A DNA stretch of 64,000 nt, taken from the NCBI GenBank assembly GCA_051294905.1, contig CM119371.1, positions 17,734,001 through 17,798,000 of the forward strand, read 5' to 3'. Below the pieces are notes generated by a model. It was not told where the DNA came from, ran no database searches, and saw nothing but the letters and a program-made list of their open reading frames with translations. Shown here one piece after another: positions 1 through 58,510 of the stretch. The stretch is from Botryllus schlosseri (Eukaryota). The first letter of the stretch is position 1. The number at the start of each line of letters is the position of its first letter. Made by a program: the position numbers and the translations under genes.

Positions 1-281
1 GTAGCGAGTAGTGCGGAGCATGGACCGGAGCCGGATTGGATATCCGGCCGGATTTTTACAATTTTGGCCGGACCGGATTGGAGCCGGATCACTACTTTTT
101 CTCTTACGGCCGGAGCCGGATCGGAGCTGGATCACTACTTTTTTGATCCGGCCAGAATTTTTATGGATAAGCATGACTTTTATATGGATAAGCATGACTT
201 TTATACCTATATAACTACCAACCAACCACACGTAAGTAACCTCCAAGCCAGTGTGAACATAAACGAGGCATATTTATCAAT

Positions 282-507
282 AGGCCTTTTGCAGGACTTC
301 GATCACGTGACTAGATACGCATAGCAACAACAAATTGGGTAGCAAGCTACTTTTTCGTGCACCTGACTCAATGCTAAATATCGTGTAGTATATTGTTGAT
401 TTCTAGTTGTAATCGTTTCAGAAATTAGTCGTGTAAGTGCGCAGGGGTTTAGATGTGTTAGATGTCAATAATCAACAAAGGATTTAGTTAGAGTGATTCC
501 GCCAAAA
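282..507 (+). repeat. Left TIR of ISL2EU element
   Basis: Reverse complement of 4387-4608; outer ~130 bp match exactly, inner ~95 bp imperfect. Confidence 0.9.
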
Positions 508-685
508 CACCGCAGAACTCCCTCGGTAACGTAGTCGTATTACAGAACATAACTATGATTGCATCATTCATATGTACCTACATTCATGCACATGAAGCAG
601 AGTAATTGGTATACATTGTATCGTAAGAGTGTTATCAAGCTTAACGAATACTATTTGGCTGCTGTAACGCCTGATTTTGGATAGA

Positions 686-2577
686 ATGACTGAAGCAGCT
701 GGAACTAGCCTTGGTGAGTATAGTGACTACGTAAACATATTCTACTGGATCTGATGATTTGCTTAATGCCAAAATCTTGAAACAATGTGGCTGATCACAT
801 CGAAAATATTGTTTGGCCAGAACCTGCTACCAAGTCTAAACGAACCAGTGCACGACACTGTTGCGTTCCGCAATGTTGCAATGATGGTCGTTCCAGTGCC
901 TCACTTACGTTTCATCGTTTTCCAAAGGATCCGCAACTTCGATCCAAGTGGATTTGGAAAATAAGACGAGATGTTGGCGCAAACTTAATGGTAAATATAC
1001 ATAACATTGTTTACCTTTATTATTCACAGTGTTTATTTTTAACGTCGATTTTTAAGATTACAGATGGGACTAGAGTTTGCTCGGCCCATTTTTCTAAAGA
1101 AGATTTTGCACCACCTGATCGAGCTGGCCGACGCTGGCTAAAAAGGCAATCTGTTCCATCTATCTTCAAATGGTCAACCCCAGTTAATCCGAGGAGAAAG
1201 ATTGTTAGAGGCAGGCCGAGGTGGGTCTAATTAGGTTGTAGGTGAGCAAGGCGAGCAATAAGCACAATAAACATATTAGCATTATCTCAAGCAAGTAGAA
1301 GCTTCAAACGTCAAAGAGTATACTATTGCTAGATTAGAATTCAGCTCTAAACATTATTAGTGACATTGACCGATTTTTTTCGTGTCTACAGCTCTTCCAA
1401 TGGGATACGAACAGAGCAGTCTAATGCAGCGATAGAACAGTCGTCTCAACTGCAGAGAGATTTTGAGGCTGTAAAGGAAGAGAACACTGCTTTACTGCAG
1501 CAACTTAAACTTGCTCAGCGGGATGTTGAGAAAAGGGAATCTGAGATTAGTGATCTTAAAGACGCAGCCACTATAACCAGTGAAAAAATACAAGAGCTCG
1601 AAACTAGTCTTAGAATTAGTCGTTTTAGTTTGGAACGTTTCTCGAAAGACAATCATTTGATCAAATTTTATACAGGCTTCCCTACATATGAGCACTTTAC
1701 ACTATTTTTCGAGCTTGTAAAACCTACAGCGGACACTATGACATATGTGTATGCTTCTGGAGTAGGCAAATCTAGACCAGTCGTGCGCAAGCTGCAGTTG
1801 ATAGATGAGCTATTTTTATTTTGTGTTCGGATAAGGCTTGGACTTTTTGAACTTGACCTGTCCCAGCGGTTTAACATCCACACGTCTACTGTTAGTAGAA
1901 AAATCGTAACTTGGGCCAACTTTCTATATTACTTGTTAGGCAATCAGCCAATTTGACCAACAAGAGATCGCATTAATGAACTTATGCCACATAGTTTCCA
2001 AGAGCTCTATCCATCAACTAGAGTCATTATTGATTGCACTGAGCTATACGTTCAGGTCCCTTCATCAATGTTACTGCAATCACAGATGTATTCATCCTAT
2101 AAGTCGAACACAACCCTGAAGGGTTTGATTGGGATTGCTCCCCACGGAGCTATAACATTCGTATCGAGCCTTTATACTGGTTCCATATCAGACAGGGAAA
2201 TTACACGATGCAGTGGAATTTTAGAGCTTCTTGAGCCTCATGACAGTGTCATGGCAGATAAGGGGTTTGACATTCAATCTATGCTTAACAAAAGGAATGT
2301 TTCACTGAATTTACCTCCTTATCTCTGCCATCAGAACCAGTTTTCACCAGATGACATCTTGAAAACAAAGGCCATTGCTAAAATTAGAATTCACGTTGAG
2401 CGAGCAATAAGAAGGATCAAGGAATTTCACATTTTTGATTCAGATATACCATTAAACACCCTTGGTTCAGTTAATCAACTTTATACAGTGGCTTGTTTGC
2501 TTACCAATTTTCAAGGCCCATTAATTAAAGAGATAGATGATGCTGTCACTGCCGACAATATTCATCAGGATGACTAG
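686..2577 (+). pseudogene. ISL2EU transposase (THAP zinc finger + coiled coil + HTH + DDE_Tnp_4/Harbinger-like), one in-frame stop
   Basis: Predicted exons 686-713, 821-990, 1057-1220, 1392-2577, all GT-AG and phase-compatible. THAP signature CCVPQC...FHRFP...W...VCSAHF...SVPSIF; catalytic IIDCTE, MADKGF, IHVERAI. TGA at 1954-1956 sits in frame where the family usually has W (I-W-P). Confidence 0.88.
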
Positions 2578-2712
2578 CTTTGTTCACAATTACTTTCATT
2601 TGCGTTGAGCTTAATATTGTACTTATATTCGTTGAATTTTTGAATAAACATGGAAAGAAATGGAATTTATTAAGTTTTGTTCTGTATTCATTGGGTAGGC
2701 CTATTATGCAGC

Positions 2713-4204
2713 TCACAAGAAATAGTCGAAGAAAAATTTGTCAACATTATCCTTGGCAATTTGAAAAAATGCAGGATCAAACATAATCCTCTCAATGAAA
2801 AAAGTTTCGTCACTCACATAGCTAAAAAATTCGCACCAGTCAAGACCACTCAATGCTAATTGGCACTGAACTTGATAATAATAGTCATGGGTCCTTTTGA
2901 GTCTGATCGGATTGGAATCTACATCTTTTAAAATGTAAGCTACATTCCTGAAGTCGGTAGCGCCTTCTTTAACAACTTTGATCTCCAAGAGACCAAATGG
3001 ACTCAGTCCTTGTAGCTCAACGGTGCCATCAAAAACCTTGCGGTCAGGTGTGCAGCCCAACCAGGGACATTTTGGATTGATAATTAAGCCGGATGGGTAA
3101 AGATTCACTTTGTCTTTTTTTGCTTTAGAAGCATATATAAATGCAGCCCGTGATTCTAAATTCAGCCCCCTCTGCATTGGTCCTGTAATAACTCTGCGTG
3201 ATGGATTAAGGTACGTGATAAGAGTCTCAAAGTTACTTTGACGCTTTGCAACTAGTCCAAATTTACTGGCAGTAATTCTCGACTTGCGAAGCTGAGTCCA
3301 ATAACTGCTATGACTTTGTGCTCTTGTCTTTGTCTCCACATCTATGGCCACTTCTCTAGATAGACTCATTGCATATAAGTCGGCGAGCTTATCCTGCTGA
3401 AGACATAATGATATTGCATTGTTGAAGCGGATACCGGCATCGGGAAGGGGCAAATTTGGGAAGACAGTGCATGAGTAGTCATTAATCAGATATTCGGCTG
3501 ACATTTTTTGTTGGTACGAAATCACGCTGCCCTTCACCGCATGACCAAATTTAGTAGGCTTCATTTCCATTGAATCATTTAATCCAGGTGCTAGTGTTGC
3601 AGCAAGAGGCTTGGGACTTAAATCGCCATATTGATTTTGACTGAAAATTGGATAATAGGTGGCTGGCGAATACAGAGTTGATTTAATATACCGATCGTAG
3701 TTGGCTCCAGGTTGAATTTTCTTAACTAGTACGTCCCCAATTTCTTGATTGCCTATCTTCCGCTCCCTTGGAATACTCCATCGCTCCTTCATTCCAGTAC
3801 ATGTGGCGGAGTCTGGTACGCTATGCAGCCCAAGTTGTTTGCAATGTGCCAGGTAATAGAGCAATCCAACTACGTGATTGCAGTAGCCTCCTAGGCCTGC
3901 AGCGCACGAGCAGTTGCCAGAAATAGATTTTGTCGGGCCAGTTCGTTGCACCATCACTTGCAGCTGATGAGGATGCTCGTTTTTCTTCATCGAGTGGTGA
4001 CACTTAGCAGTGACAATGGCGGAGTCAACATCATGTGATACTGCAATATTGATGATAATCAAAAACCAGGAAGTATTGCAATGACCACTGAGCTTGGGCT
4101 AAGCACTGAGCTTGTTAGGTGCATGAAATTATTATTTTTGAAAAATATAACTGAATAAGAAACTGGTACTTACCTCTACCGGTTGAAGCTGATGCAACCG
4201 CCAT
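2713..4204 (-). CDS. SWIM zinc finger + YqaJ/lambda-exonuclease-like PD-(D/E)XK nuclease (ISL2EU accessory ORF)
   Basis: CSCAAGLGGYCNH (SWIM), RITASKFG, LGCTPD, LLEIK, YYYQVQCQL (YqaJ motifs). Main exon 2713-4040 is open. Probable short first exon 4174-4204 (ATG...G|GTAAGT), phase-1 compatible. Confidence 0.9.
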
Positions 4205-4386
4205 AGCTCACGATCGATGTCAATCGAAATATTGCAAAAATTAACAACTACTACTACAACAACAACAACTACTATCTACAACTATCTTACTGCTGCAAAA
4301 ATATCACTCAGTCTCCTTCAATGCCGAATTTTGTGTCATCAAATCAATGTTGGGTACGTACCAAACAACGATTAAAATATCAATTA

Positions 4387-4608
4387 TTTTAACGGAATTA
4401 TTCTAAATCCTTTGCGTAGCATTGACATTCGACACATCTGAATCCCTGCGCACTTCCAAGACTAATTTCCGAAACGTTTACAACTAGAAATCAACAATAT
4501 ACTACACGATATTTAGCATTGAGTCAGGTGCACGAAAAAGTAGCTTGCTACCCAATTTGTTGTTGCTATGCGTATCTAGTCACGTGATCGAAGTCCTGCA
4601 AAAGGCCT
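4387..4608 (-). repeat. Right TIR of ISL2EU element
   Basis: Reverse complement of 282-507. Confidence 0.9.
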
Positions 4609-7311
4609 ATTCACGGAGCCTCCGTACCGAGTAGGGCCGGATTTCTGGCCGGACTTTTTCATTTTTGGCCGGACCGGATTGGAGCCGGATCAGTACTTTT
4701 TCGGATACGGCCGGAGCCGGACCAGAGAATTGAACAACCGGATCGGAGCCGGACCAGAGAATTTGTCGATCCGCCCCGCACTAGTAGCGAGGGCAATTTA
4801 TACTAGCGAACAAAGACAATTTAAAACAGCAATCAAACAATCAAATCACTAAAATCGTACAAATACAATTAGTAGAAACATGGAATACCAAAGCACAAGG
4901 GACGAACTGATTCCTCTCTCTAAAAACGTTATCAAATAAAAGATAGTAAAAACATGCGCAATCGCAAACCATGAGCTCTGACGTTCGCTGCGTCGGAGTC
5001 GAGTTTTTCATCGCATTTTAGAGGACAAAAAGAAGACAAATTCCCAAATAAGAGGACATTTAGGCGTCCTCCGAGGACGTTTTCAATTTATTGAAAATAA
5101 AGCACAAATCCTCGTCAACGTATGCTAACCCAATGCTAAAGTTCATTAGTGTATTTCGGGATTCGACACATATTTATTGCTAAAAATGTATTTTTTGCCC
5201 ATTGTGCCTCACCCTTTCCTGCATAGATTGGTCAGTGCTTGCATAATGATTAGCACCTATTCATTCGATTTAACCACGGGTGATCAGTAGGCTGAGCCTA
5301 ATGATGAGAAGTACTTAAATAGGTTTTACACTAGTGATTAAGGATGGTTATGAGATTTGGCTACTTCTACTTCACAGTTTTAAGGCAAATCTAGGCCTGT
5401 ACATTTTACTGACTCGGGAATCGCTTATATACCGGAGTGGTAGGCTAATTAATGGCCCTCTCTGCGGCCATTCTTCAATTTGTTTTGATTTTAGACTATA
5501 CTACTAAACAGAGCTTTAGGTAAAAGTAGGTATAGAATAGGCCTACCTAGCTTTTATCTACTGCGAGATCGCTATTTCTTCTCGAATACAAATCTACAAC
5601 TTCACTTCTTTATGGGTACCAAAGAGCAACTGGGACTAGTTTGGCCACCTCTAATGATATGGTCTAAAACGATTTTATACCAGCATCTTAGCATATACTA
5701 AACCCGAACATGTCAGCCATATAATAATCACCGAAACGGTACTTCGTCAGCACCCCAATACGCTGGTCTTGGGCGCCACATAAGTTCATGAACCAATATT
5801 TTGGGGTGCTTTGCCACTAGAACCCCTTCATGGCTAACAGTAAAGCACGTCTCCCTGGTATAGGGAGTCTCGGTATACGTGTGGTAACCGCGGAGGGGGA
5901 CGTAAAAAATCATATCCAGGATAGAATTTTGTCAGTAATATTGATAGTTGCATATACTGCTATTAATTTTAGATCCTCAATCAGCTCATGTGATCAGATC
6001 TACGGCTAAGCTGAGGGAGGCGGGGACTTCAGGTAGCAAGCGTAGAACTATTCCACATCGATAGACAATTGGCAATACCGGTATAAATATTGATGGTTTC
6101 GGTCATTTTCGGCCAAGGTTTTATTTATTAACGCACGTCGCGAAGTCGCATGTTGGCCGATACTTCAGAAGTATTGGTCTGTCGTGGAGCGGTAACGGAC
6201 GGTGCTGAAACGTCTATTTTTGTTTGAAAAAATCTTTGGTGCTGAGGGTACCCATACTAAAAAGCAGACATTCAATTACGTTAAATCGAGCGAAGAAAAT
6301 TTTGAAGTTTTAGGAAATTTCCCACAAAATTCTCTATAATTGTTGCTTTGCGAAATAATTTTGGTCTCCCTGCGAGCTCGCCTCCTTCAAATTGGGGGGT
6401 TTGAGGTGAGGCAGATACGGCCCTGTAGATAACCCAACTCTGACTGTCAATAAAACAACAGCAAAGTATGGCATAAACGTGACGCAATGCAGAAGAGATA
6501 ACACATGCATTCTCAATTCCAAAGTTCTATTCGAGCATAGTTCACGTAAAGGGAGTCGGTATAATGACACAGTGCAGGAATGCCCGTGATGGAAATACGC
6601 CAACAAAGAATCAGCTTGCATAGATCTGAAACTGCTTGTCAACCAAATCGAGCTAATTCTAACACAGAGCCCGTCATGAAAGAAATGCGCAAAAGAACCA
6701 ATCATAATAAACAATAATCTAAACTAGAGATATGGCACTAACAACAACAACTCGCAGTACATACAAACAATTTGCTGTCCTGCAAATAACACCAGAGGCA
6801 GCAATAGCTTACTCAACATTCGTTGGTAAATTATATCAAGTGACAGTGACCTGATCTGAGCGAGAAGGCACTGTAACATTATGACTTGCATCTCCGAAGT
6901 TTCGATTTAGCAAATGCCTTGAAGCAGAATGGGTCCACTGCACTCAGCATGACTCTTTTGTTATAAATAACTATAACAGAGTCAAGTCCAAAGTCAGTCA
7001 CAAGTAAACGTTTTCATTTCGCCATATAATCAGAGGTCGTCGCTGTTCAGTACCGAAGTATCAGTACTTTTCCGGAGTAATCAAGTTGGTTTTGCCAACT
7101 TACAATGTCCACTGCTACTTGATCAGTTTTTAGGCCAAACGACTACGGTATTTCTAATGAAGTTTGGCTTCAAGATCCATGGATGTACTATGCATGGTTT
7201 CAACTTGAAGACACGCATTACCAGCACTCGAGACATTACTGGTAGCCCCGCTCCAAGTTGTATTAAAGTCATTGATAACTGCACCAGAATTTAGCAGCTA
7301 ACACTCATTAG

Positions 7312-10483: not shown

Positions 10484-11111
10484 TACGGTTGATTGAAAAT
10501 GAAAAAATACTATTCAGATTTTTGCGGCTATTAGCTAAAATAGTCACGTTGGCTAATAAAACGTTGTGCGCAAAATTCGGCCCAACTCCAACCAGTGGAA
10601 ATGAAGTTACATGAGTTTGAAAATTTTGAATTTAAGATAAAATATTGATATTTTTTCTTTCAAATTTCACTGGCTACCCCATGAAATTATCAAGCTGCCT
10701 AAAAATGGTGTATACCAATTTTGGCTGTATTCCAAACGGTAGAAGCGAAGTTATTGTAGTTGAAAGTTTTGGATCTGAATATATACAGCATTGATGGTGG
10801 GTAAATTCCAGAATCATGAACAAAAAAACTCAAATAACTTCGCTTCTACGGGTTGCAATCGAGTCAAATTAGTTTTGCATCGTTTTCGGAAACAACGCAA
10901 CCATTTCATGGGGTAGCCAGTACAATTTGAATAAATTTTTTCCAATATTAAATATTGAATTAAAAAATTTCAAACTACTGTAGGCTGTAGCTTCACCTCT
11001 ACTGGTTGGAATTGAGCCATTTTTGGTGTACAGCGTGCTTTTTCTAGTAAACGTAACAATGTTAGCTAATAGCCCAAAAAATCTGAAAGAGGTCCTTTTT
11101 GAACAACCCTA
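10484..11111. mobile_element. Old copy of the ~620-bp palindromic MITE family (see 31156-31772)
   Basis: Ends in TTTGAACAACCCTA; arms are imperfect inverted repeats sharing TTCCAACCAGTAGAAG-like motifs with the young copy. Confidence 0.75.
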
Positions 11112-11195
11112 ATACACCACTTGAAATCCAAGTACCCAAATACTACATTTCCCCAGCCCTACCTACAAGCCATGGATGAATAATGAATCTAATTT

Positions 11196-11486
11196 CTACT
11201 CATCAGGCTCACTGTCAGGGTCGCTATCCGCATTCACAAGAAGCTTGTGCTTTTTTCGCGACATCACCACAGACACCACAATGTAAACCACGAGAATAAC
11301 GCAAATCCCGATCAATACAAACGGCAAAGAATACACCAGCCCTTCCAAGACTTCAACTTGTTTGAGGTGTTTGGCGGAGCCGTCGTCGATAAGCGCGCTT
11401 TCGTTGAGCCAAAGCAGAGGCAGAGTCGTTTCCGTGAAGCCTTGCAAGCTCGCGTGCAGGTTGGTAGGCTTTACTTGCGCGTTCAG
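11196..11486 (-). CDS. SCARB2: CD36-family scavenger receptor (LIMP-2/SCARB2-like), last coding exon
   Basis: LPLLWLNESA motif, C-terminal TM helix, stop at 11196-11198; acceptor TTTTACAG directly upstream on the minus strand; phase 0. The symbol denotes closest family resemblance, not proven orthology. Confidence 0.88.
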   Translation of the reverse strand: MNAQVKPTNLHASLQGFTETTLPLLWLNESALIDDGSAKHLKQVEVLEGLVYSLPFVLIGICVILVVYIVVSVVMSRKKHKLLVNADSDPDSEPDE

Positions 11487-11823
11487 CTGTAAAACGAAAT
11501 CATTGCTGTTAGACCACCACAGATATTATTAAGTTTCCACACCTAGCCTACCACACCGAATCAATCAATCGACAATAAATGCTTCATAAATAACAGAATC
11601 ATTCGAAAATTGGTGATAGATCTGCAGGGAGACGAAACCATCATATCAACATCCACCCTACTACAGGAGACAAATAAGTCATAATTGAATTAAAATCGAA
11701 ATGGCCTATATAGTGTAAGGTACTACTCAATAATAATGTAAAAATATTGCTCATGCCGGTGACGTCATATTTTATGATAGGTATACAATGTTCTTTCCAA
11801 TTCTCTACTAGTTGCTGACGATT

Positions 11824-11858
11824 ACCCCTGACGAGGGTCATCCGAAGATATTCGGATT
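11824..11858 (+). ncRNA. Minimal hammerhead-like motif (copy C)
   Basis: ACCC-CTGACGA-GGGTCATCC-GAAG-ATA-TTC-GGATT; stem II GGG/TCC can pair; GAAA box has one change. Confidence 0.5.
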
Positions 11859-11895
11859 CATTGCAACATCAATATAGCCATAGGCCTACGCCTAC

Positions 11896-14287
11896 TAGGG
11901 TGGAGTGAAAAATGGAAAATTTTGAATTTCAAAACGGACACTTGATATGTGGTGCCAAATTCAAAAAAAATAATTTCTATAATAATTTTGGGCTCGTGCA
12001 CCCTCTAGTGGTCGTGCAATTGCACCGAATGAGCCAAAAATAGCTAATTTCGCTATATATTGATGACCGCTTATGCTAGAAAGCTGGTTTTGGGCTTAAA
12101 AGATGCGGAAGCAACAAGTTTCTATCTCACTTCCACAGAACTTAGTCTTAAAAATGAACAGAAAAAAAGTTACAAGCAAATTATTGATTTTTAGGCTGTT
12201 TTAGGTAAAATTAGGCACTGAAGCAGTGGATATGATGCCAAAAGCTTGTAGTGATTGATCTTATGACTGACAACTCCATATTGAAAGCACATAAATTGCA
12301 AATCTATATTGAAAGCACAAAAACATCAATTCTATATTGAAAAAAGATATATTTCGAAGATGGTTTCACTACCAGAGTATTAATATGCGCAAACTTTAAA
12401 ATCTTGTTTCGTATTAAAAGATTTCATCTGCTTTCGAGATTTCAGTTTTTGTCTGATCAGGCCATCTCTACGTTCAAATTGCCATACATGGGCAACGGGC
12501 ATATGCTTCGGTCACCACTTTACCGTCTCTTTCCACTGCCTGGTTGTGCCAAGGATGATTGATCCTTAATGGCGATGACCTTAGATTTTCCAGCTCGAGA
12601 TATGAAAAGTTTTTGATTGCTGGTGGATGTTCCACATCTTTTAGATGCAAGTTGACAGTTTGGTGGTATGATTTGGCTTTGATGTTTATAATTGGGATTT
12701 TGAACAATCTGATTCTAGTGTCAACGTTGTTTTTAGGTTTCGGTTCATTAACATATCCTCCTTCAAAGTCGCCAATTGGAATCTGGTATTCTGTTTGATC
12801 TGCTCATAGTTGTAGTCTTGCAAGTCTTCTGAGGCCTTCATCATCATCACTGAGCATTCCCAGATGTGCAAAACATGCCTTTCGTTGTAGCAAAGATAGT
12901 GCAAGGTTACGAATTCGTGTATCAGAAAGCTTTTGTAACCTGGGAAACTATGTTGCAGAAGTTTCTGGCACCATCAACAATGGAATCGCGCCTTTTTATT
13001 TCAAACCATGACGGAAAATAAACCTCCATGCAGAATTGAGTAAGATAGTTCAGATTGCCGGATGGATGACTCTGTCGAACATAGAACATGCCAAATTTTG
13101 AGTTTCTATGTACGACAGAGCAATCTGAATTATCTTGCTCAATTCTGCATGGAGTTTCATTTTCCGTCATGGTTTGCAATAAAAAGGCACAATTCCATTG
13201 TTGATGGTGCTAAAAACTTGTGCAAAATAGTTTCCCATACTACAAAGCTTTCTGATACACGAATTCGCAACCTTGCACTACCTTTGCTACAACGAAAAGC
13301 ATATTTTGCACATCCGGATAATGTTTTTTGGGAATGCTCAGTGATGATGATGAAGGCCTTGGAAGACTTGCAAGATTACAGCTATCAGCAGATCAAACAG
13401 AATACCAGATTCCAATTAGCGACTTTTAAGGAGGATATGTTAATGAAATAAAACCTAAAAACAACGTTGACACTAGAATCAGATTGTTTAAAATCCCAAT
13501 TATAAACATCAAAGCCAAATCATACCACTATATTGTCAACTTGAATCAAAAGATATGGAACAGCCACCAGAAATCAAAATCTCGTCATATCTCGAGGTGG
13601 AAAATCTAAGGTCATCACCTCAAACATCCTTGGCACAACCAGGCAGTGGAAAGAGACGTTAAAGTGGTGACCAAAGCATCTGCCCATGTGTCGGGATTTA
13701 AACGTAGAGATGGCTTAATCAGACGAAAAACTGAAGTCTCGAAAACAGATGAAATCCTTTAATACGAAACAAGATTTCAAAGTTTGTGCATACTAATACT
13801 CTGGTACTCTGGTAGTGAAACAATCTTCGAAATATATCTTTTTTCAATATAGAATTGATGTTTTTGTGTTTTCAATATCGATTAGCAATTTATGTGTTTC
13901 CAATATGGAGTTGTCAGTCATAAGATCGATCACTACACGCTTTTGGCCTCGTACCACTGCTACAGTGCCTAATTTTACAGAAAAATGGTCTAAAAATCAA
14001 TAATTTGCTCGTAACTTTCTTCTGTGCATTTTTAAGACAAAGTTCTGTGGAAGGGAGATAGAAACTTGTTGCTTCCGCATCTTTTGAGCCCAAAATCAGC
14101 TTTCTAGCGGAAGCGGTCATCAATATAGAGCGAAATTTGCTATTTTTGGCTCGTTCGGTGCAATTGCACGACCACTAGAGGGTGCACAAGCCCAAAATTA
14201 TTATGGAAATTATTTTTTTCAAATTTGGCACCACATATCAAGTGTCCGTTTTGAAATTCAAAATTTTCCATTTTTCACTCCACCCTA
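11896..14287. mobile_element. 2.4-kb foldback element made of two inverted hATm 3' halves
   Basis: Termini TAGGGTGGAGTG...CACTCCACCCTA; TSD ACGCCTAC (11888-11895, 14288-14295); arms inverted up to a ~17-nt loop near 13088-13104; both arms carry hATm C-terminal motifs (FPSWF, HPWHNQAVERxxKVVTxA, RDGLIR). Confidence 0.9.
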
Positions 14288-14399
14288 ACGCCTACCAATC
14301 AATCCAATATAACAAGTGAAGAGATAAGAAGAATACAAGCACTAATGCGGGGTATTTATTAATTTTAATAAGAACTGATTGGCGATGAAGATGTCACAG

Positions 14400-17300
14400 T
14401 TGAAGACACAATATCCTCGATATATATACTGAGTCAAGCAAAATGTTTGTGTGCAGAATGCAGTGCTTTGTTGATATGAAGGCACGAGCTCTGAGTAGTA
14501 CCAGTACTAAAGTAAAGTGAGAAACATCACTGGATGAAGCAGTGATAGTGAGGAGATACAATACACAGCAATTTGAGTAACGGATTAACAAATATGAAGG
14601 TTAGTGTGTTGTTGGAAAAGTCTGGAATTAATGATGGTTAGATCCACACAAATATATAAATACGTGGAAGACGTCTGCATCTGCAAATATCAGCACATCC
14701 AATGCACTGCAACAGTTTTAAGTAAGAGGTCTTAAACACTGCTGGATTGATAAGGACCATTTGCACCAGCTGTAAAGTTGTTTATCCTGAACTACAACTA
14801 GGACTGTTGCAACGGAAGTACCAAAATAAGTTAGAGTTTAGTTGTAAATGAATTTAGTTTACAAGGGATGTAGCTTCACATAACTGCCAAAACTTGATAT
14901 CCGCAGAAAATATCCTATAATAGTATCCGCTTGAAATTCCGATATCAATCGGGCTCTACTCATGAGGTATGATCAAAACTTTTCTGATAACATGTCCAAC
15001 TAATAAGGATACATGATACTACGCTTTGTAATCGCAAATTTTCGATCGTCAATGCCTCATGATAAGCATGGGAAATATTTCGTCATTTCACTTGTGACTG
15101 TCTAGGTAATTTCGCAATTGCAATCTTAGTAGTTTGTATGTCACTTAATTAGAGAGCATTTTAATCTCCGACATTACAACAACTGTTGACAACATACCGG
15201 TAATAGGCCTGTCCTTTCCACAATGTTGATTAAGGTTATGTGATAAATCACCATTAAACACGATTGCGAACCTTTCCCGATGCAATCTGTGCAAAATCTC
15301 CTTTGAAATTAACTGATCACAGAGAAAGCCAGAGCTGCCATACCATCATTTGAAGATTTTCCTCCATTTTGAAGAGTCTTATAAAAATCATTCTGTTTCA
15401 TTCTAAGATTTGTCCTAGTATTTGAATCGATTTGATTGACATCCTTGTTTACAAATCCAACAGCTAGTACACGGGATATATGAGCTCCAATAATAATAGG
15501 TCTACATGATCCACGCAGGGCATAAATTGAGACCTTTGTGTTAGTCAGCAGATTACAAAATGTGCATCGTATCACTTTGTAGGTAACAAAATCTTAGGCT
15601 GGACACTCTGGTTGTTATTTGCGTCCTACCCAATTACCAACAGTCGAGCAGAATGGTACAGCTTCCCTCGTTACTAAATCAGTGACTATGGAATATGGAT
15701 ATTACTCACATATAGGACTCACAGAAATTTCAGAAGAATTTCATTCAGAGTTTTCATTTATGCTACTGCAGACAATATCAACACTTTGTTGGATCATGAA
15801 GTTTATTTGAGAAGTGGTTATACTTAAACCCGACAGGGCCAGAATAGAAATGTAGTTCTTGGACCCGTATTTTAAAATTGGTACCAGTATCAATTTAATG
15901 CTTAATAATTTTATTGGGTGAGCTGGCATTCTTCAGACTGCCATAAGTGAGATTTAAAACTATAAACACACATTTACGACCATCAGGCGGTTTGGTTATG
16001 TGGAATAAATATTATGAAACATTGAGTAGGGACAGAGTGCAGGTGACATGACATTACCAATGCAAACAATTCTCTTTGACAAACATATAGGTCGCACCAA
16101 TCATAATAACCAGTCCACTGATCAAACTCTACAAGCAAAGCTTGCACTGTGAACCTATCTTCATTTAATACGACTAAGGCGACTGCAAATGAACTTTGCA
16201 TCAAACAAAGGATTCCGATCAGCTGACGTTGCTGCGTCCCGCATTTGAAACACTTCGAATGCTCAATGTGAACCATGCCATTACAAAAGCACCATCAGCA
16301 TCAGGTTAAAATAGACTTGCTTCATTATATCAGCAAGTCACCATGCTACTGAATCAGAGTATCAGGATCAGGGTATCCAATGTCAAGTCTAGCCGTGTAA
16401 TTTTTGCTCTACGGGAGTCATTAATTTGCAAAGTTGTTCCTGAGGTAGGCCTATTCAAAGAAGCAATAAGCCTGTGGCATTCAATGTCGAAAACTATCCG
16501 AGTATATATCAGACTTGACCCTTTTCATTTCCATCACCGGTTTTTCAGAATAATAAATCCCTACTTCCGCTTGTGCTGAAGTAAAATTTCCAAAACAGTG
16601 GTGCCATATCTACTCAAGTAGCGTGAATTAATGCTATGCCTTTGTGCTAGCCTAAGTTTACAAATTAGGTTCTTGGATGGCGGAATTGTACCATTCGACC
16701 AAAATTTTCCAAGCTTGAGTGCGAGCAATTTCTTTCATTCAATGAATTCGCAACAACCGTAGGTAATGAAAACTGCTTTCAAATGTTGCAAACTATGCCA
16801 GCATGGTCTACCAAAAAAGATTTAATCTGATTACTACTAGCTGTGACACACAACTAATGCTGCACGAAATCATGCAGTTTCGTGAAACGCACCAAGACAT
16901 TGTACAGGGAAAGAAAAAATAGTTTGTGCTAGGATCTTTTACCACAGCGATATTCGGCTACGATCTTATATCATTTACACAGGCAGTTTTTAGTAATTGT
17001 CCCAATCGTGGGACACGCAGCCTTCTAAAATGGGTCACGACAATGTTTAGCTGGTTACCAAACTTCATTTTGACCACTTTTTCGATCAAAACATATGCCG
17101 CTGATCTACAAATCATGTGGCAACATAGAAAGTGAGTCATGTTGTAAATGTAATGACAGTGTTGCAGAAAAAAATAGACATTGACCTCAACCGCAATGAA
17201 GACAAAGTATCAATAGCACTTCCAGGCAGAAACAGGAGACATGCTGGTGAAGCTATCCAACTGAGACTCCAGCAATCGCAAAACGTCAAATAAGCAGTAC
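14400..17300 (-). mobile_element. Highly degenerate LINE (CR1/L2-like) relic
   Basis: Decayed RT-like motifs on the minus strand: QGSxLxPLL-like near 14720-14760 followed by IFAD-like near 14675-14695; boundaries uncertain. Confidence 0.4.
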
Positions 17301-17891
17301 CACAGGAGTGGGCATAAGAATGATGGCATACACCGAGCTATTGATTGAATATTTTTTGTCCTTATAGTTTCAAGTACTGTGACACTTCTACTATGTAATA
17401 CTCGATTTGGGTTGGAGTAGGCTATTCAATTCATTGTGCCCAGCATTAAACATAACCAGAGCAGTGGTTCTGAACCTTTACTAATCCATGGAACACTTGC
17501 GCTAATCTACAAGCCTTCGAGGAGCCCCAAATTTTTGCTGAGTCACAAAAACATGAATTTACCACGTTACGCGATATTACATTACTTAGGAATACTCGCC
17601 TAAATTGTGCTGTGCATCAACAACATTGTGTAAAACCAAAACCATTAAAACATGATTGTCACAGAAGACGAAAAGATTTCAGTGAACATTACTGCAGATT
17701 AGTGTGACTGATACCAGTTATCAGTGAGATAAATAATAATACTGCAATCGCAACGTGTTCAGACTTTATGACGAAGCAAACGAAAGAAAGATCCGAAAAA
17801 ATGTCATGTTTTTGTTTGGTCGAAACGAAACAGAAAGGTGCTCATTGCTGGGATCGGAAACGAGCCTATGAAAATCGATGATAAAGTCGAC

Positions 17892-18425
17892 CAGGGTTGT
17901 AATGACTCGAGTCATGATTCAACTCGATTCGCGATTTTTAATGACTAGACTTGTCTTCTATCAATCTGTGTATCGACTCGACTTGTGCTCGAGTCTTTGT
18001 GCGTGACTCGCACCAAGTCATACGACTTGAGACTTGGACGGCCAAGACCGACATTTCATTTTTAATTCCGAAAAACAGTGAAGTTACCACACTATTGGTA
18101 TTTCGTCTATTGGTACTGGTACTTGAAAATGTGACCAGAAACTGTGAAAAGTGAGGAATAATATTTTATTATGCATGCTAAGGATTTGATATTACTGAGC
18201 AGAGTTGTAAAAAGTGCCTTCAACAAGAAACTGGATACTGGTAGTCAACACAATGACTTGGACTCTGACTCCACAATGATTCGAACTCAACCCTCTGCTT
18301 GCCAACTTGGAATAGGACTTGACTCGGTGACGAATTGAAAATATGACTCTGAATTGACTCGACTCAAAACTATAAAAGAGAGATTGACTTGCGACTCGGA
18401 ACCTTGCGACTTGGTAACAACCCTG
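17892..18425 (+). mobile_element. GACTCG-rich hAT MITE, copy 1
   Basis: CAGGGTTGT...ACAACCCTG termini; directly homologous to 18781-19323. Confidence 0.75.
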
Positions 18426-18780
18426 TTCTAAAAATGTTTTTTCAAACAGATAAATGACAGATTTTAGGTGTCTATTTATCAATTTCCAGTCCAGATATAC
18501 ATGGCTTTGATAAGTCATTTACAGATGATTTGACGAGTCATGCGCAATGACTCGAGTACAAGCCGAGTCATTTACCATTTTTAAGAAAATGACTCGAGTC
18601 AAGTCGAGTCAATAAAAAATGCGACTCCAGTCATTACCACCCTGATTTTGAACCAAAATCCTGTTGCGGCAACACAAATGACGTGACACCAACGCCATTC
18701 ACAATTCGGCTACTGATCGCACCTAATTGCCTGCAACCAATAACAGCATATAGTCTCAAATCATATGTTCAAGTTTTGTG

Positions 18781-19323
18781 CAGGCTTGTAATGACTCGAG
18801 TTACGATTTTCAGAAGACTCGCCATGACTCGAGTCATTTTTTCAAAATATGGAAATGACTATACTCGACTTGAGTCAATCTGTGTATTGACTCGACTTGG
18901 ACTCGAGTCACTCGAACCAAGTCATATGACTCGAGACTCAGACGGCCAAGACCGACATTTCATTGTAATTTCGAAGAATAGTAAAGCAGACGCACTATTA
19001 GGATTTCGTCTATTGGTACTGGTACTTGAAAGTTCGACCTGAAACTGTGAAAAGTGAGGAAAATTGGTATATTATAAATGCGAGCCATTTGAAATCACCA
19101 AACAGAGTTATAAAATGTGGGTTCAACAGGAAACTAAGCAGTCAACACAATGACTTGGACTCAGACTCGAGTCATAATACCATGACTCGGACTCGACCCT
19201 CTGCTCGCTGACTTGAACTCGGACTTGACTCGGTGGTGATTTGAAAATGACTCGACTCGAGTCAAAACTATAAAACTGAGATTGACTTATGACTCGAAGC
19301 CTTGTGACTTGGTTACAACCCTG
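18781..19323 (+). mobile_element. GACTCG-rich hAT MITE, copy 2
   Basis: CAGGCTTGTAA...TTACAACCCTG; TTTTGTG on both flanks. Confidence 0.78.
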
Positions 19324-19612
19324 TTTTGTGTGTCTTGACGTCTAGCGGAGCCCTTGAAACTGGCTCTTGGTACCCTCGGTGTTCTGTGGGAAACAGGTTG
19401 AGAACCACTGAAGTGGAGTAAGTCATGCAGTTACTCGACACCCACTTGTGTACTTCAAAGAAGTAGAAGTACTTCATTAGCCTAACGAACTCCTTTGTAT
19501 GCAAGCGACAATGATATCAGCGGGTTAAAGAAACACCAATGCTATGCAGTATGCAGTAGGCTATTAATAATAGGAACATTTTACTAGAATTGAAGTAAAA
19601 ACACATCCAAAC

Positions 19613-26904: not shown

Positions 26905-27530
26905 TAGGGCTGTTAAAAAGAACTTCTCCTTCAGATTTCACTGGCTACATGATAAAATTGTCAGGTTGGTTAAAAAAACGCTGCACACCAACTTTGGCTG
27001 AATTCCAACCAGTAGAAGCGAGATTCTTGCAGTGGAAAGTTTCGAATTTATCATTAAAATATAAAATATTTCAAAACTTTCTGTCGACCCCATAAAATTG
27101 TTAGGCTGTCAGTGGAGATGATGCACACCAAATTTGTCTCCATTTTTAGAAGCGAAGTTATTGCAGTAGAAAAATTTCTTAATTCCATTATTATATAGTG
27201 AATAATTAAGGACTTAGTCACCGTTGATAGGCCTACTATTTTATTGAAATCCAAATTTTTCTACTGCAATAACTTCGCATCTAGTGGTTGGAATTGAGCC
27301 AAATTTGGTGTGCATCTCTACTGACAGCCTAACAATTTTATTGGGTTGACAGAAAAAATTTGATATTTTTGGTTTTAATGATCAATTCAAAACTTTCTAC
27401 TGCAATAATTACGCTTACAGTGGTTGGAATTGAGATAAAGTTGGTGTGCGATTTTTTTTTTACCAACCTAACAATTTTATCATGTAGCCAGTGAAATCTG
27501 AAGAAAACATATGTTTTTTGAACAGCCCAA
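26905..27530. mobile_element. Palindromic MITE family copy
   Basis: TAGGGCTGTTAAAAA...TTTTTGAACAGCCCAA; inverted arms. Confidence 0.8.
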
Positions 27531-27640: not shown

Positions 27641-28393
27641 TCATTTAGGAAAGCATCTTTCTTCCAAACTATACAAGTCCACAATCTCATCAATCACTTT
27701 CGTTATCTCCTTAGCCGCGATCGACGCATGAAAAACCTTCCACCAAGGCGTCTTACAGGCTTGCGACATCGGCACAGTAGCCTGACACATTTTCAAAGCT
27801 AACGCAATACAGCTAACCGCTACCAGAGGAGGCCTGTGATCAAGGCATACAGTGCCGTGATATGTATCACGGAGTATAGACCAGGCCGTCTGCGCAATGG
27901 TGTATCTACCCCATTCTTTCGAATTGAATAGTTGCGATAACGAATGCAAATAATGAGCCAGATACTTGTGCGGGTGATCGCAGGTGACACGAAATCGCAG
28001 CATACGTAAGAGCAGTAGTTCACAGCATGATATTGTGTCTTTCAGATCGTAGAGTTCTCGACCGATTTCCAGACGCTTGTCAGGATTCAGTGTCCTGTGG
28101 CAGACATTTACAACGTCTCTCAGCCTTGTGTGCTGCTCTTCCACTTTGGTGGCGAGAAAAATTGCAGTTGCCGCTATCGTGTGCGGATGGTAATCTTGAA
28201 TGCTGCATTCCTGGTAGAAACGGTGGTAGAGGACGCAAGCGCTGGCGAGAGTTGTGGAATTCAGCTTCAATTTGGTGCAGCTTACGAATATGAAGCGAGC
28301 CACTTTGAAGTGAACTGTGTCCGCGGAAGCCTCCGAAACATTCGAGTCTTTGTCGCGAGAAGTCGTTGACGTGTTGCCTCCATGAAGTGACAT
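27641..28393 (-). CDS. CCNQ: Cyclin Q (cyclin M / FAM58A), intronless CDS, 250 aa from first ATG
   Basis: VHFKVARFIF...KL...ACVLYHRF...AIFLATKVEEQHTRLRDVVNV...CELLLLRMLRFRV...HPHKYL...AWSILRDTY match the cyclin Q box pattern. First ATG at 28391-28393; the ORF track starts at an upstream GTG. Confidence 0.92.
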   Translation of the reverse strand: MSLHGGNTSTTSRDKDSNVSEASADTVHFKVARFIFVSCTKLKLNSTTLASACVLYHRFYQECSIQDYHPHTIAATAIFLATKVEEQHTRLRDVVNVCHRTLNPDKRLEIGRELYDLKDTISCCELLLLRMLRFRVTCDHPHKYLAHYLHSLSQLFNSKEWGRYTIAQTAWSILRDTYHGTVCLDHRPPLVAVSCIALALKMCQATVPMSQACKTPWWKVFHASIAAKEITKVIDEIVDLYSLEERCFPK

Positions 28394-28567
28394 ACCCTTA
28401 ACCGCAATGGTTCGAATGGTACTTCTTGACACTTGACTGGACTATTGCAATTTGCGGTATATATGTATCCCTCCCTGTATCTCTGAAGCTTCTATACCGC
28501 ATCAACAATATAGTTTCTAGTTAGTCAACATCTTAGCAGCAATCAAGCGAATCAGCGTTATGGTGAA

Positions 28568-31155: not shown

Positions 31156-31772
31156 TAGGGCTGTTCAAAAATAACTTTTTTCTCCCGATTCAAGCCGGTC
31201 ACCTCTTAAATCGTCAGGTTGCAGTAGAAAACCTTGCTCACCAAATTTCACTCGATTCCAACCAGTAAAGGCCTCCGCAGATCCAATTAAAATTTTTAAT
31301 TTATTATGGAAAATTTAAAAAAAAAAATTCCAAATTTTTCTGCCAACCCCATGAAATTGTTGAGCTGTCTTCAAAGACGTTGCAAAACAAATTTGAGTCA
31401 ATTCCGACCAGTAGAAGCGGAGTTATGTGAGTTTTTCGTTGATAAATCGCGGATTATCCACCAATCAGGGATAATCCGAGAAATATCATCGAAAAACTCA
31501 CATAACTCCGCTTCTACCGGTCGGAATTGACTCCAATTTGTTTTGCAACGTCTTTGAAGACAGCTCAACAATTTCATGGGGTTGGCAGAAAATTTTGGAA
31601 ATTTTTTTTTAAAATTTTCCATAATAAATTAAAAATTTTAATTGGATCTGCGGAGGCCTTTACTGGTTGGAATCGAGTGAAATTTGGTGAGCAGGGTTTT
31701 CTACTGCAACCTGACGATTTAAGAGGTGACCGGCTTGAATCGGGAGAAAAAAGTTATTTTTGAACAGCCCTA
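31156..31772. mobile_element. Young, almost perfectly palindromic 617-bp hAT-type MITE
   Basis: TAGGGCTGTTCAAAAA...TTTTTGAACAGCCCTA; TSD ATGTGCAG (31148-31155, 31773-31780); ~300-bp arms with few mismatches, centre near 31464. Confidence 0.95.
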
Positions 31773-41380: not shown

Positions 41381-44311
41381 GACGGTAGTATCGATTGTCC
41401 AGGCGGTGTTGATTAAATAGTTTGTTCGAATCGGTTCTACTGTCAATCAGGCACTCCTCTTTACGTGGATACGTCTCTTATGAGGAACGGTATCGACGAT
41501 TGTTGCGACGGAAGTGACGAATGGTTCTAGCAGAAAAAGCAGAAGTGGTCTTTTACCTCTAAGGATAGAATGGTAAAAGATTGGTATGTTGTTGCGATCA
41601 TGTGGACCGTTGGGATATTAGCAATATTAGGAAATGGACTCGTCATCTTTAAATCGCTTCGCTCACTACTAAATCTATGCAACATATATCCTGCGCGCAA
41701 ATTCCGCGTCCGTGTATTATCTTCGATATCTTCGATAAAGAGTCATTGGGCTCAGAATACAAAAAGCGATAAGAAAAAATATCTCTCGCATAAATCTCAA
41801 ATGAGAGTACCTCCAACAGGAGGGAAAAAAGGCGTTCGCGTTTGGAATAATGTGTTTATCCTCAATCTGGCGATAGCTTACTTTCTAAAGGGGATTTACC
41901 TGGTGGTTCTGGGAGGCGTGTCCACGACTAATACATCAATCTATTTGATGACAGAAGTTGGAGAACGGGTTTTTTGTGCCAATCGCTTGGTGTTATTGTG
42001 GTTTTATCGAGTCAAGCTTCAGTGCTAACCTTGGTAGGCTTGACCACACTCCGTCTTGGTACCGTTATCAAGCCGTTCGGACTGCAGATTTTGAAGAGAG
42101 TGAAGATTCTCTCAGCGATATGCATCGCCATTTGGGTCGTCTCATTCCTAATAGCAATTTTACCGATTTTACCCATCACAAAGCATTTCTACACCATGGC
42201 AGCATGGGTGCCGTTTCCCCATCTTCGTCCGTCAGTGGTTAATCAAACTGCAGCGAACAAAATTTGGTCCAGGTCGATTGCATTTTCCAAAAATGCTACT
42301 GTGCTGGTTCATTCTGGACACGAATTATCTTGGAATGAGTTGGTAACGTTACCATTGGACTTATTTCCTGTGTACTCGGAATGGAGATTTTTCGGGTTCT
42401 ATAGCGCACACAGTGTTTGCATTCCGAAACTCTTTGTTTCTTTAGGGGATACAGCATGGTAGCACACCGTGGCAGTTTTATCTCTAAATCTGACTGCTTT
42501 TATTTATATCCTTTGTGTTTACCTCGTGATATATCGACTGTCGACGAAAAGTACCGTTATTACCTGTAATTCTTCTGAACCTTGTGTTACTGACAACAGA
42601 ATACTAACTGAAATAGGTAAGATATTACCTGGCTCACATTCTCGAATGCCCGAATCGAAATGCCAAAGCTCCAATGAGGCTACTCGCAACGCATCTTCCA
42701 GAAGAAATTCGGAAACACAAAAAATGCAATTTCGTATTTTTATCTTGGTTGCCACTGACTTTGTATGTTGGGTTCCTGTATGTATCCTTGGCTTTATGCA
42801 TTTGTTCAGGTACGATGTTTCAAATACTGCGTACGTGGTGTCCGCTACTGGATTGCTACCGATCAACAGCGCTTTGAACCCAATGGTATATTCCAATTGT
42901 CAAGGCGTATTGTCAAAAATACTTTGTCGTCAAAAGCGCAACTTTTAAAATAATCTTGGCTATGTTTATGTAGTTTTGTGTAAATGGCACAGATATTGTT
43001 GTTCCCAAACGGAATTCAAGGTTAGGCCGCAGCCAACTTATTTTATTGATATTGAAAACAGGCTCTAATTTGCTCACGAATACTGACCAGGTTTCATATT
43101 TCTTTAGTTTCATTTAGTGATTCTCAACTTTTTCGTTGTCACGGACCCCTTCAGACAAATTATTAATGCTGCGGATCCATACCTAAATTTTGTCTGACAC
43201 TCAATAAATATACCATTGACCAGTGCTTTTCAACCTGTGGGATGGTATACACACTTGTGCGAATGAAAATATTTGCGTTACGGATGACGGAGGTGATGCG
43301 AACTGTGCGGATAAAAATCCGGATGAGTGCGGATGAAAATCGTAACTAATTGCTTATTTTTCTGACGGGGAATAATTTAAAAAAAACTAATAGAAAATTC
43401 AAGTGCAGTGTCTTGCTAACTTTTGTAGTTGTGACGTGATTGTAAATACTTTTTAGACTTACGAAGTACCACTAATCGTACCTTTGACCATAACTTTGTC
43501 TCTCACAGGCTGTAGTGAATTAATATTTGCGCACTATACCTATTACGCTACCAAAAGCCTGGTTCGAAAGTGGGTGTAGTGGCAGACATACAATGTATCA
43601 GCCCGTCTGACCCGGCGACAGGCTGAAGAAATGACGTCAAATTGAATTTCTGCTTTCTTTCGCTGAAAAATCAACATATTTCCGTTGTAACAGTTCGAGC
43701 AGCGCGAGTCATGAGGATAGTAGTAGGCCTATATACAATCATTACAGACTCACATTTGCAAGTTACTATAACGCAAATATTTATCCGTTTATGAGTTATT
43801 AAAGTATATGGGTGGCAAAGGATATAATTTTGGATCGACACGGTGCAAGAACGATCTTTTGATCTCTATGTAATATTTGTTGAATTTATTGTAAATTGAT
43901 ACTGCGATCATTTTTGCATATCCAATGTTACTGCTATGTTGGGCACTATAGCTAATAAGCGAGATACGCAGAAAATATGACTTGATCATGAGAATGTGCC
44001 GACCTTTGGTTTGAATTCATGATAAGATTTGTCCGACTGATATTTCTGGAAAACATGGTCGAAGACCGTTGGGATGAACTAGGGGTGTGCAACTGTGCAA
44101 CGAGCAAGTTCAAGTCCGTGAGAATCGTTCATTTCGAGGTGGGAACGTAACTGCCGCATAGTTTTTTCATTCGTTTGGCCCATATCTCATTCTGGATCAA
44201 ACAACAAAATTTGTATTGGAAGTGGGTGGTGAACCCAAAAAAGGTTGGGAAGCACTGATCTATTAAAATGGGGTCACCCCAGCTGTATTACGCAAGTCGG
44301 TTCGATTATTA

Positions 44312-48246: not shown

Positions 48247-49002
48247 CAGTGGTTCTAAACCTTGTTTCCTCCATCGCTCCTCTCAGAAATTTACATGATG
48301 GTCTGGCGTCCGCTCGTATTTTATGAATCGCACTAAAGACGACGGGATAGAGGTCGCATTCCGGTCGGTCTTTTCGGGTTAGGACTTGACTATTCGAAAC
48401 ATTTCGCGCGCAATCGCGCTCGACTAACTGCCGATCTTATAGTTGTATGTGCTACCATTGTGGTCGCTGCCCCGAAAATTCCAATGACTTCTCTACCTTC
48501 AAGTAGGGGAGATGTGGTACCGATGGATCAGAAATTGCAAAATGATCTCTGGCCCTTAATCTTCAGTCGAGAATAGCAGGTCTTTTGCTGGCTTAACACT
48601 TTGATCCAAGCTCTACCTACGGCGGATATTTACATAAATATCCGCCTCCTTCAAAATATATTTATAATCATTCAGAATTCGTTGCTCGAACATATCATGG
48701 GTCCCCACCCGGTGGGTTCAAAGTCACATGACCATGGTACCTATGAGACACACGCTCAAGAACTCAAATTTACCAACTTGTTTAGCTGTACAAAATTAAT
48801 GGCACAAAGGCTATATACTGTCCGTAAATCGCCATTTTGACTTTCAAATACCTCGTTATAGAGATAAAACGCCGCTGGTAACTATGATCTATTTATGTAG
48901 GCGTGCTTCTGTTGCGTGTTAATGGGGCCCACTCTATTTTGTAATTGAATTGATAGTAGTCCACTCGAGGCGGTATTGAGAGCCAAGGTTAAAAAACCAC
49001 TG
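48247..49002. mobile_element. Old hAT MITE ending 83 bp upstream of the DCAF1 start codon
   Basis: CAGTGGTTCTAAACCTTG...CAAGGTTAAAAAACCACTG; TSD matches only 5/8. Confidence 0.65.
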
Positions 49003-49085
49003 CTTTAATCGATACCTTTCTATTTCAAATTATTCAGCCTATCCTAATTTTTGTTAGATTCCTTTCTTCTCCGACTGGTCTCGTC

Positions 49086-57248: not shown

Positions 57249-58510
57249 TAGGGTTGGGACTTCGGGATCAAATTTGAAATCCCGGGATCGGGATTTTCCC
57301 GGGATTCTCGCTTCTCAATCCCGGGATTTCCCGGGATTGGAAAAGTATTGAAATACACATACAAGCTACACAATAGGGCTGTTCAAAAATAACCTTTTTT
57401 CCTGAATCTTGCCGGGTACGTTATAAAATCGTTAAGTTGCCTTAAAAAACGACGCACACCAAATTTGAATTCATTCCAACCAATATTCGCGGGTTTCGTA
57501 GAGTTTGAAAATTTTGAATTCAAAAATTTTTTTTTTCAAATTTTTCTGCCAACCCCATGCCATTGTTGGGCTGTCTTCAAAAACTATGCAAAACAAATTT
57601 GACTCAATTACAAGTAGGGTTGGGACTTCGGGATCAAATTTGAAATCCCGGGATCGGGATTTCCCGGGATTTTCGCTCCTCAATCCCGGGACTCCCCGAG
57701 ATTAGAAAAGTAGTAAAATAGACATACAAGTTACACAAATAACATTTAGTCCTTGTGATATTGAATTGACGCAAAACATAAGAGCATCAAGAGTATCATC
57801 GTTTAGATCAGGGGTCCGAAACTCCAATTTTATCGCGGGCCAATTTCGTAGTTTTTGATGACGCTGCGGGCAGCAGCATCAAATAGGGGTATAATATGTA
57901 TTTCCCAGTACGCCTTTTTTGTCGGACCTTGCAGATTGGCATTCCATACACATTGTGAAAATGTAATACAATATTGTAATATTCACGGTTGCCACGAAAA
58001 AGTCATATTTTTCAATATTTTTTAAAAATATTGTTGTGCTTGGCATAATTTGGCGACATAAAGGAGTTATATAGACAGTTAGAAACCATGCGAGACGACA
58101 AATGCATCGTGTCATCGTAAAAGCTGTCGCATTATAATTTAGCAGCTAGTGGACGTTTGATGTGTGATTCAGGTTTTTGGAGTGGTTTCAGAATGAAATT
58201 TCAAGTTCTCAAACCCGAAATCTGAAATTTTCGAGTTTAATATTGTAGAATCCTAGAATGCTTGAAAAGTCAAAACGCCGACGTGGGCCGCAAAAACAGT
58301 TCTGGCGGGCCGCGTGTTTGAGGCCACTGTTCTAGACAATCAGCCGAGTTTGTGACACTGCTTTATTACCAAAATAAGAGATATGGCGCTACATAAGCCT
58401 TGGTAGATGCTGTTCACAAATCCCGGGATTTCATCGGGACCAATCCCGGCATCGGGATTGCTTCAAATCCCGGGATCCCGGGATCGGGATTTCCCGGGGT
58501 CCCAACGCTA
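57249..58510. mobile_element. CCCGGGAT-rich hAT element with duplicated left end
   Basis: TAGGGTTGGGAC...GTCCCAACGCTA; TSD GTTATAGG (57241-57248, 58511-58518); left end repeated at 57615. Confidence 0.88.
57809..58329. mobile_element. Charlie-like hAT MITE (third nesting level)
   Basis: CAGGGGTCC...GGCCACTG ends; GCGGGCC motifs; flanks GTTTAGAT / TTCTAGAC. Confidence 0.65.

Follow-up and report, generated by a model that had tools for sequence, protein, structure and literature searches.

A decayed fold-back hATm transposon with mirrored transposase remnants in a CD36/SCARB2-like intron of Botryllus schlosseri, probably one copy of a multi-copy family

Host Gene and Organization of the Palindromic Element

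The window analyzed here is a 64-kb stretch of Botryllus schlosseri DNA in which three minus-strand reading frames matched CD36 (PF01130) at positions 2-294, 293-391, and 387-462; among named relatives, a Styela clava protein matched the host protein best (52%). The last intron of this gene carries a palindromic element of 2392 bp (11896-14287) that starts with TAGGGTG and finishes with CACCCTA, lies ~410 nt from the 3' splice site, and is the longest inverted repeat within the window. The features of the locus, in window positions, are as follows.

11199-11486, minus strand: coding part of the last host exon (reading frames, PF01130 match)
11487-19612, minus strand: last intron of the CD36/SCARB2-like gene, ~8.1 kb, GT..AG, lying between the matches to PF01130 293-391 and then 387-462
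11888-11895: left target-site duplication, ACGCCTAC (sequence identity)
11896-13086, minus strand: left arm, 1191 nt, an hATm 3' part in reverse orientation (arm alignment)
11896-11961: outer 66 nt, identical between the arms, starting with TAGGGTG, the hATm consensus end (arm alignment; available text of PMC6004678)
11896-12379, minus strand: non-coding end of the left arm, with the outer ~320 nt covered 6-9 times deeper than the coding part (contig depth)
12380-13086, minus strand: transposase remnant of the left arm, equivalent to residues 517-740 of the relative P0098, with frameshifts near 12935 and 12500, a 15-nt deletion, and a stop at 12806 (frameshift-aware alignment)
13087-13103, plus strand: 17-nt loop, the fold-back junction, made of additional right-arm coding bases (frameshift-aware alignment)
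13089-13796, plus strand: transposase remnant of the right arm, equivalent to P0098 residues 512-740, with a 12-nt deletion, frameshifts near 13325, 13546, 13619, and 13728, and a stop at 13427 (frameshift-aware alignment)
13104-14287, plus strand: right arm, 1184 nt, the same hATm 3' part, with CACCCTA at its end (arm alignment)
14288-14295: right target-site duplication, ACGCCTAC (sequence identity)

The first-pass annotation of this stretch had described a ~2.4-kb fold-back with a ~17-nt loop, bounded by a single perfect 8-bp target-site duplication, with arms that differ by many substitutions and indels, inside an intron of a SCARB2-like gene, and our measurements agree with it on each of these points. 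The two arms flank the 17-nt loop and align with 1070 matches, 89 substitutions, and 12 indel events (~92% alike), ACGCCTAC is identical on both flanks (the chance of one given 8-mer matching is ~9e-6), and the intron has GT..AG borders between PF01130-matching frames. The loop is not foreign DNA; it prolongs the coding frame of the right arm by 17 bases (CQILS against CRILR), so the junction is a fold-back in which one arm is 17 nt longer than the other. Sequence around the junction (13085-13106) matches the element's own subterminal sequence (11909-11930) at 18 of 22 bases, the best of 1334 positions, in an AT-rich context and spotted post hoc. Each arm also holds three 28-nt tandem units in its 3' non-coding part (12271-12358 and 13826-13913).

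Divergence between the arms is even across their four inner sections (7.2-9.4%), whereas the outer 66 nt contain no differences at all, which is improbable under a uniform rate (P = 0.005). These identical ends are at odds with plain decay, and could be explained if an already aged copy transposed again or if one arm was converted by the other. The divergence of the remainder bears directly upon whether the palindrome is real. An artefactual fold-back would give identical arms and no duplication, whereas here the arms differ throughout their inner sections, carry private lesions each, and are bounded by an exact duplication; although no listed read piece from the sequencing runs described below (compared over 11130-13150) spans the whole unit, an assembly artefact is scarcely credible.

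Just left of the insertion, at ~11775-11877, lies a fragment of an extremely abundant repeat (contig depth of 1.4-2.4 million versus ~100 for the flank), which is the only part well covered in RNA run X23. At ~11571 a second haplotype in runs X1 and X8 stops matching the window, and a 1950-nt contig in X8 continues from there for ~1.4 kb unlike the window, a possible structural polymorphism of the intron. Elsewhere, the window contains an element at 279-4611 with 209-nt inverted ends (93%), plus-strand THAP, HTH_Tnp_4, and DDE_Tnp_4 frames, and a minus-strand SWIM/YqaJ-like nuclease frame; a cyclin-like frame (27641-28441, minus strand, PF00134); a frameshifted or split rhodopsin-family receptor (41531-42948, plus strand, PF00001); and a single frame of 1286 residues without a Pfam match (48993-52853, plus strand), which presumably resembles DCAF1/VprBP.

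Assignment to hATm

The termini of the element, TAGGGTG...CACCCTA, are the hATm consensus given in the available text of PMC6004678, and the 8-bp duplication agrees with the 8 or 9 bp reported there, so that the assignment to hATm proposed at first pass is borne out by both ends and duplication. The same text describes two hATm elements with terminal inverted repeats (TIRs) of 417 and 575 bp, while other members with short TIRs appear in its Figure S3. When the left-arm fragment was used as a protein query, 147 proteins were retrieved at E-values up to 0.001. Several of the metagenome relatives described below (L004, L007, L017, and L049) have TAGGGTG ends on their two sides. Pfam returned no family for the two arm fragments, nor for the transposases of the relatives. 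The predicted structure of the full-length relative P0098 (mean pLDDT 77) has a hAT-type fold, with Hermes as its best match (Foldseek E 2.4e-4; Z 15.4, rmsd 5.7, 353 aligned); the six top rows are all Hermes (Z 13.9-15.4), and the next row has a Z of 11.8. Protein searches found no intact parent, the best relatives being 43-63% identical, and word-seeded searches among longer proteins yielded no relative, which is weak evidence. Additionally, the exact 24-nt end of the element was absent from the metagenome collection, and no hATm-type loci were found in viral contigs.

Transposase Remnants and Decay of the Arms

Each arm contains the final ~230 codons of a transposase of hATm type, directed outward, and translation and alignment thereby confirm the earlier observation that the same C-terminal fragment is present twice. 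The transposase gene is not intact: the counterpart of P0098 residues 1-511 is absent, and stops and frameshifts occur in both arms. Frameshift-aware alignment of the arms was run against three relatives, including P0098 (742 residues, ~45% identical to the element over the transposase fragment), and identified 4 lesions private to the left arm and 6 private to the right arm, with no frameshift or stop common to both. The claim that the arms share frame disruptions is consequently retained, by inference, at one site only, the 10 lesions above being private to one arm or the other. At that site, a conserved V-N-K-I-x-x-I-R helix, which follows RRLA, is missing from the main frame of both arms (score -7.0); in the right arm, a shifted frame matches the last six positions of the helix with a score of 4.2, compared with -0.5 for the left arm and 6.9-11.4 for eight relatives. 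The missing helix suggests one lesion common to both arms, and with one such lesion seemingly in common the donor element may have been damaged already before it was doubled.

Coding changes between the arms number 44 over 187 comparable codons, of which 14.2 are synonymous against a neutral expectation of 11.6 +/- 2.9 (P = 0.15). Because the synonymous share lies near the neutral expectation, the arms look like one sequence that was doubled and then decayed neutrally.

Copies of the Element in Sequencing Runs

Four of the 24 listed runs were compared at 80% likeness with positions 11130-13150, which extend from the left flank through the left arm and the loop into the first 47 nt of the right arm. 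Run X5 seemingly represents another individual, with many flank differences from the window, and X1 may be the window's own source. Median contig depth over the coding part was 144 times that of the unique flank in X1 and 222 times in X5, and over the outer 320 nt it was 1233 and 1363 times the flank, respectively; these values are contig sums inflated by overlapping contigs and are not copy numbers. The extra depth of the outer ~320 nt presumably stems from shorter relatives, a natural TIR, or both. Four of the 24 listed pieces (records 2, 3, 9, and 18) end at 11896-11898 and then continue into other DNA.

Near the center of the palindrome, an opposite-strand joint, 12990>13062, recurred in each of the three contig runs (depth 1552, 1407, and 16), its shorter side measuring only 19-35 letters, and the opposite-strand joints 12993>13062 and 13037>13087 occurred in two runs and one run, respectively, among the 15 of 87 joints that were listed. 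No inverted repeat over 14 nt within the arm itself was found that would account for these joints. Base 13112, just right of the loop, was covered by 7 contigs, and in X1 and X5 its depth was about 19-23 times that of the flank. The left arm departs from the family at 19 listed sites; the right arm carries the family base at 14 of these, and at 1 both arms have the same departure. Internal deletions are also present among the listed joints and pieces of the family. Taken together, the deep coverage, the other flanking DNA, the joints at the center, and the internal deletions point to a fold-back family that is multi-copy and includes shorter derivatives, the element probably being one copy of it. 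What speaks against a multi-copy family of whole palindromes is that no second complete 2.4-kb copy with its own duplication was seen, the right flank lying outside the compared stretch.

These data also bear upon an origin in place, which the first-pass annotation had allowed, whereby a single event at this site would have turned a resident element into the palindrome, which kept the old duplication and never moved. A gap-repair model permits such an event, no second full-length copy was seen whole, and ordinary 5'-deleted copies could give the depth of the family; however, a depth of ~20 times the flank right of the loop, together with joints within ~100 nt of the center in up to three runs, suggests one fold-back founder. 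Since the family looks multi-copy, we regard formation in place as quite unlikely. We instead consider it likely that the element is a decayed, non-autonomous fold-back hATm transposon and one copy of a multi-copy family.

Fold-Backs Among Metagenome Relatives

A metagenome scan confirmed 136 stretches, from which the best 80 loci were kept (52 clusters at 90%). In ten of these 80 loci the transposase is bracketed by inverted repeats (118-328 aligned nt) outside coding DNA, several being cut by contig ends, and a further pattern, an inverted repeat over coding DNA directed outward as in the window element, was found at 6 of the 80, in six different 90% clusters. The ten speak to the proposal that the inverted ends of the autonomous family naturally include coding sequence, in which case the element would be a plain internal deletion. 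While hATm ends can span hundreds of bases (available text of PMC6004678), none of these 10 inverted-ended relatives (at least 100 nt, among the best 80) has a repeat that reaches into coding DNA, and the loop derives from a single arm; natural coding ends are thus highly improbable. The long non-coding inverted ends of hATm relatives also temper the earlier statement that the unit has two 3' ends and no 5' end: the two 3' parts stand, but the lack of a 5' end is less striking.

The six outward fold-backs belong to a group of 13 loci in which the match begins no earlier than residue 380 and 80 nt or more of upstream sequence is present, and their right arms start between residues 405 and 551. 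Long diverged arms are found in L072 (1084 matches, 52 substitutions, loop of 148 nt), L043 (860 matches, 39 substitutions, loop of 363 nt), and L079; the others are L049 with a short arm, and L019 and L050, whose near-perfect arms may reflect amplification or assembly artefacts. Both element ends were present within one locus at none of the six, and amplification or assembly chimeras are possible for any of them. The loop measures 17 nt in the window element and 148, 363, and 459 nt among the relatives. Because the scan was seeded with a motif at residues 585-592, 5'-5' fold-backs were mostly missed and no 3' bias is claimed. The 3' end of L049 (1324-1348, TAGGGTGGAGTGAAAA...) matches the end of the window element over 16 nt, and this locus has its short fold-back at the 5' break.

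Palindromic MITEs in the Window

A family of fully palindromic MITEs of ~620 nt with TAGGGCTG/TAGGGTTG ends is represented in the window at 31156-31772, 26905-27530, about 10500-11111, and 57374-57614, the last being a half copy between two direct repeats. The copy at 31156-31772 (617 nt, TAGGG-ended, 95% palindromic) is flanked by a perfect 8-bp duplication, ATGTGCAG, and its symmetric TAGGG ends and exact duplication indicate that symmetric ends of such a type move here. Descent of these MITEs from the fold-back element was considered and rejected, as they share only 15-29-nt matches with its outer 530 nt and contain no coding remnant; they form a separate family.

Origin of the Fold-Back

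The most likely origin of the element is a template switch during gap repair. Yang et al. (2013, PMC3814204) propose, in the available text, that the Goblin MITE of Aedes aegypti, both sides of which derive from the right end of the Tc1/mariner element Ozma, arose when gap repair jumped from the left TIR to the right one, and they suggest the same origin for hairpin MITEs. Applied to the window element, a parent hATm transposon, probably with one helix already damaged, would have excised, and the gap would have been repaired by copying the sister. The strand begun at the left end would have switched to the right end by way of the long inverted repeats and copied 3' sequence, and both new strands would have halted inside the transposase gene, 17 nt apart, before being joined. 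The product, having two good symmetric ends, could then have been mobilized by transposase made elsewhere, with insertion and duplication of 8 bp; central and internal deletions would have given shorter fold-backs toward MITE size, and the window copy would since have decayed and is most likely functionless. A switch of the Goblin type would account for the outward arms, the loop derived from one arm, and the probable common lesion, and the long symmetric ends of hATm elements would favor it. The view that fold-back units are a route to palindromic MITEs, advanced at first pass, gains support from the fold-back joints of the family, the internal deletions, and the 6-9 times deeper outer 320 nt, and such a route has already been published for Goblin (PMC3814204, available text).

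A different course of events would have one hATm element inserted in inverted orientation in or beside another, or the ends of sisters joined by alternative transposition, with the unit moving on its outer 3' ends and the middle deleted; equally, a break in the gene could have been sealed as a hairpin and replicated. Inverted duplications of Ac, a hAT element, arise by alternative transposition (bioRxiv 10.1101/2020.01.07.897926, available text), the loops of different length listed above are equally compatible with deletion, and the 18/22 match at the junction might be a cryptic binding site, albeit one in AT-rich sequence and spotted post hoc. The arms nevertheless bear no trace of two separately selected lineages and probably have a lesion in common, and neither an internal end nor a second duplication is left in the element, which makes these routes unlikely.

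Extending the template-switch account beyond this genome, we tentatively propose that hATm elements across their hosts regularly turn into outward 3'-3' fold-backs, that their long symmetric ends remove the need for Hermes-like asymmetry, that such units retain their mobility and, losing central sequence, are reduced to fully palindromic MITEs with the whole size series in the genome, and that intronic copies supply double-stranded RNA matching the transposase; this general scheme is possible, although we would sooner expect it to fail than to hold.

Hairpin Formation and the Proposed Silencing Role

According to the first-pass annotation, read-through transcription of the host intron would yield a long hairpin that is processed into small RNAs silencing hATm elements, in the manner of maize Mu killer, and that is likely edited by ADAR. 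If the element were transcribed, all 1098 predicted pairs would lie on the diagonal, arm on arm; between the arms there are 11 Watson-Crick runs at least 21 nt long, and the location is intronic with canonical splice sites. No RNA dataset was among the runs listed as containing the stretch. RNA run X23, of which about 6 in 100 were read, had a depth of 0 over 11130-11741, including the host exon, so that transcription and editing of the locus were not readable from it; depth on the element was 0-6, and 1613 of the 1614 placed reads were only partial fits. Several observations weigh against a silencing role: no active target is known, the many palindromic relatives in the genome give the window copy no special standing, and the arms, with their 12 indel events and even decay, show no visible selection for pairing. 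The window element resembles Mu killer as well as the Ac killers of maize in that part of a DNA transposon is duplicated in inverted orientation where a host promoter can reach it, but in the maize loci 5' parts are duplicated, siRNAs are made, and active elements are silenced, whereas the window element doubles a 3' part (bioRxiv 10.1101/2020.01.07.897926, available text). A function as a silencing trigger is consequently very unlikely, and this decayed insertion is probably inert.

Comparison with Known Systems

The origin of both ends of an element from one side is of a known kind, as in the Goblin MITE, mariner, and Galileo, and the comparisons that follow refer to the available text of the reports cited. 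As in Goblin, the right (3') subterminal part supplied the sequence on either side of the junction, in unequal lengths, and the window element, like Goblin, is seemingly multi-copy, though a second whole copy was not seen. Unlike Goblin, which is 213 bp long with 15 copies and a known parent, the window element is 2.4 kb long, belongs to the hAT superfamily, and mirrors ~230 transposase codons (PMC3814204). Rearranged mariner MITEs of Drosophila likewise have one end swapped for the inverted other end, have long TIRs, and were amplified, with seven sublineages described (Wallau et al., 2014, PMC4161770); in these, however, it is invariably the 5' part that takes the place of the 3' part, whereas the window element doubles the 3' part. 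Furthermore, the element resembles the "two extended TIR" copies of Galileo, which are non-autonomous and have recruited internal sequence into TIRs of up to ~1.25 kb (Marzo et al., 2013, PMC3573991), but Galileo belongs to the P superfamily, recruits the spacers F1/F2, and has no transposase sequence in its longest-TIR copies. MITEs are usually under 600 bp and mostly non-coding (PMC3573991), and at 2392 bp with two ~700-nt coding remnants the element is not itself a MITE.

We found no report of a coding fold-back hATm element in the open literature, Repbase and subscription journals lying outside its scope, and the available text of the hATm survey (PMC6004678), its table of 28 members aside, mentions no coding fold-back derivative. 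Within the literature searched, what is new is that such a unit belongs to the hAT superfamily, how large it is, that it mirrors coding sequence, and that the arrangement apparently recurs in other families of hATm, although Repbase, subscription journals, and the supplements of PMC6004678 may already list such elements.

For Hermes, two right ends are inactive in cells and two left ends have little activity (bioRxiv 10.1101/2022.09.16.508221, available text). Unlike Hermes, the hATm-type elements of the window apparently move with symmetric ends, as their exact 8-bp duplications indicate, which suggests that hATm transposases accept identical ends. The template-switch model for the origin of wholly palindromic MITEs rests on few cases, all with short arms. 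A multi-copy intermediate that retains coding sequence, as the window element probably represents, fixes both the polarity and the break point of the event, and with its shorter relatives the progressive shortening could be tested within one genome.
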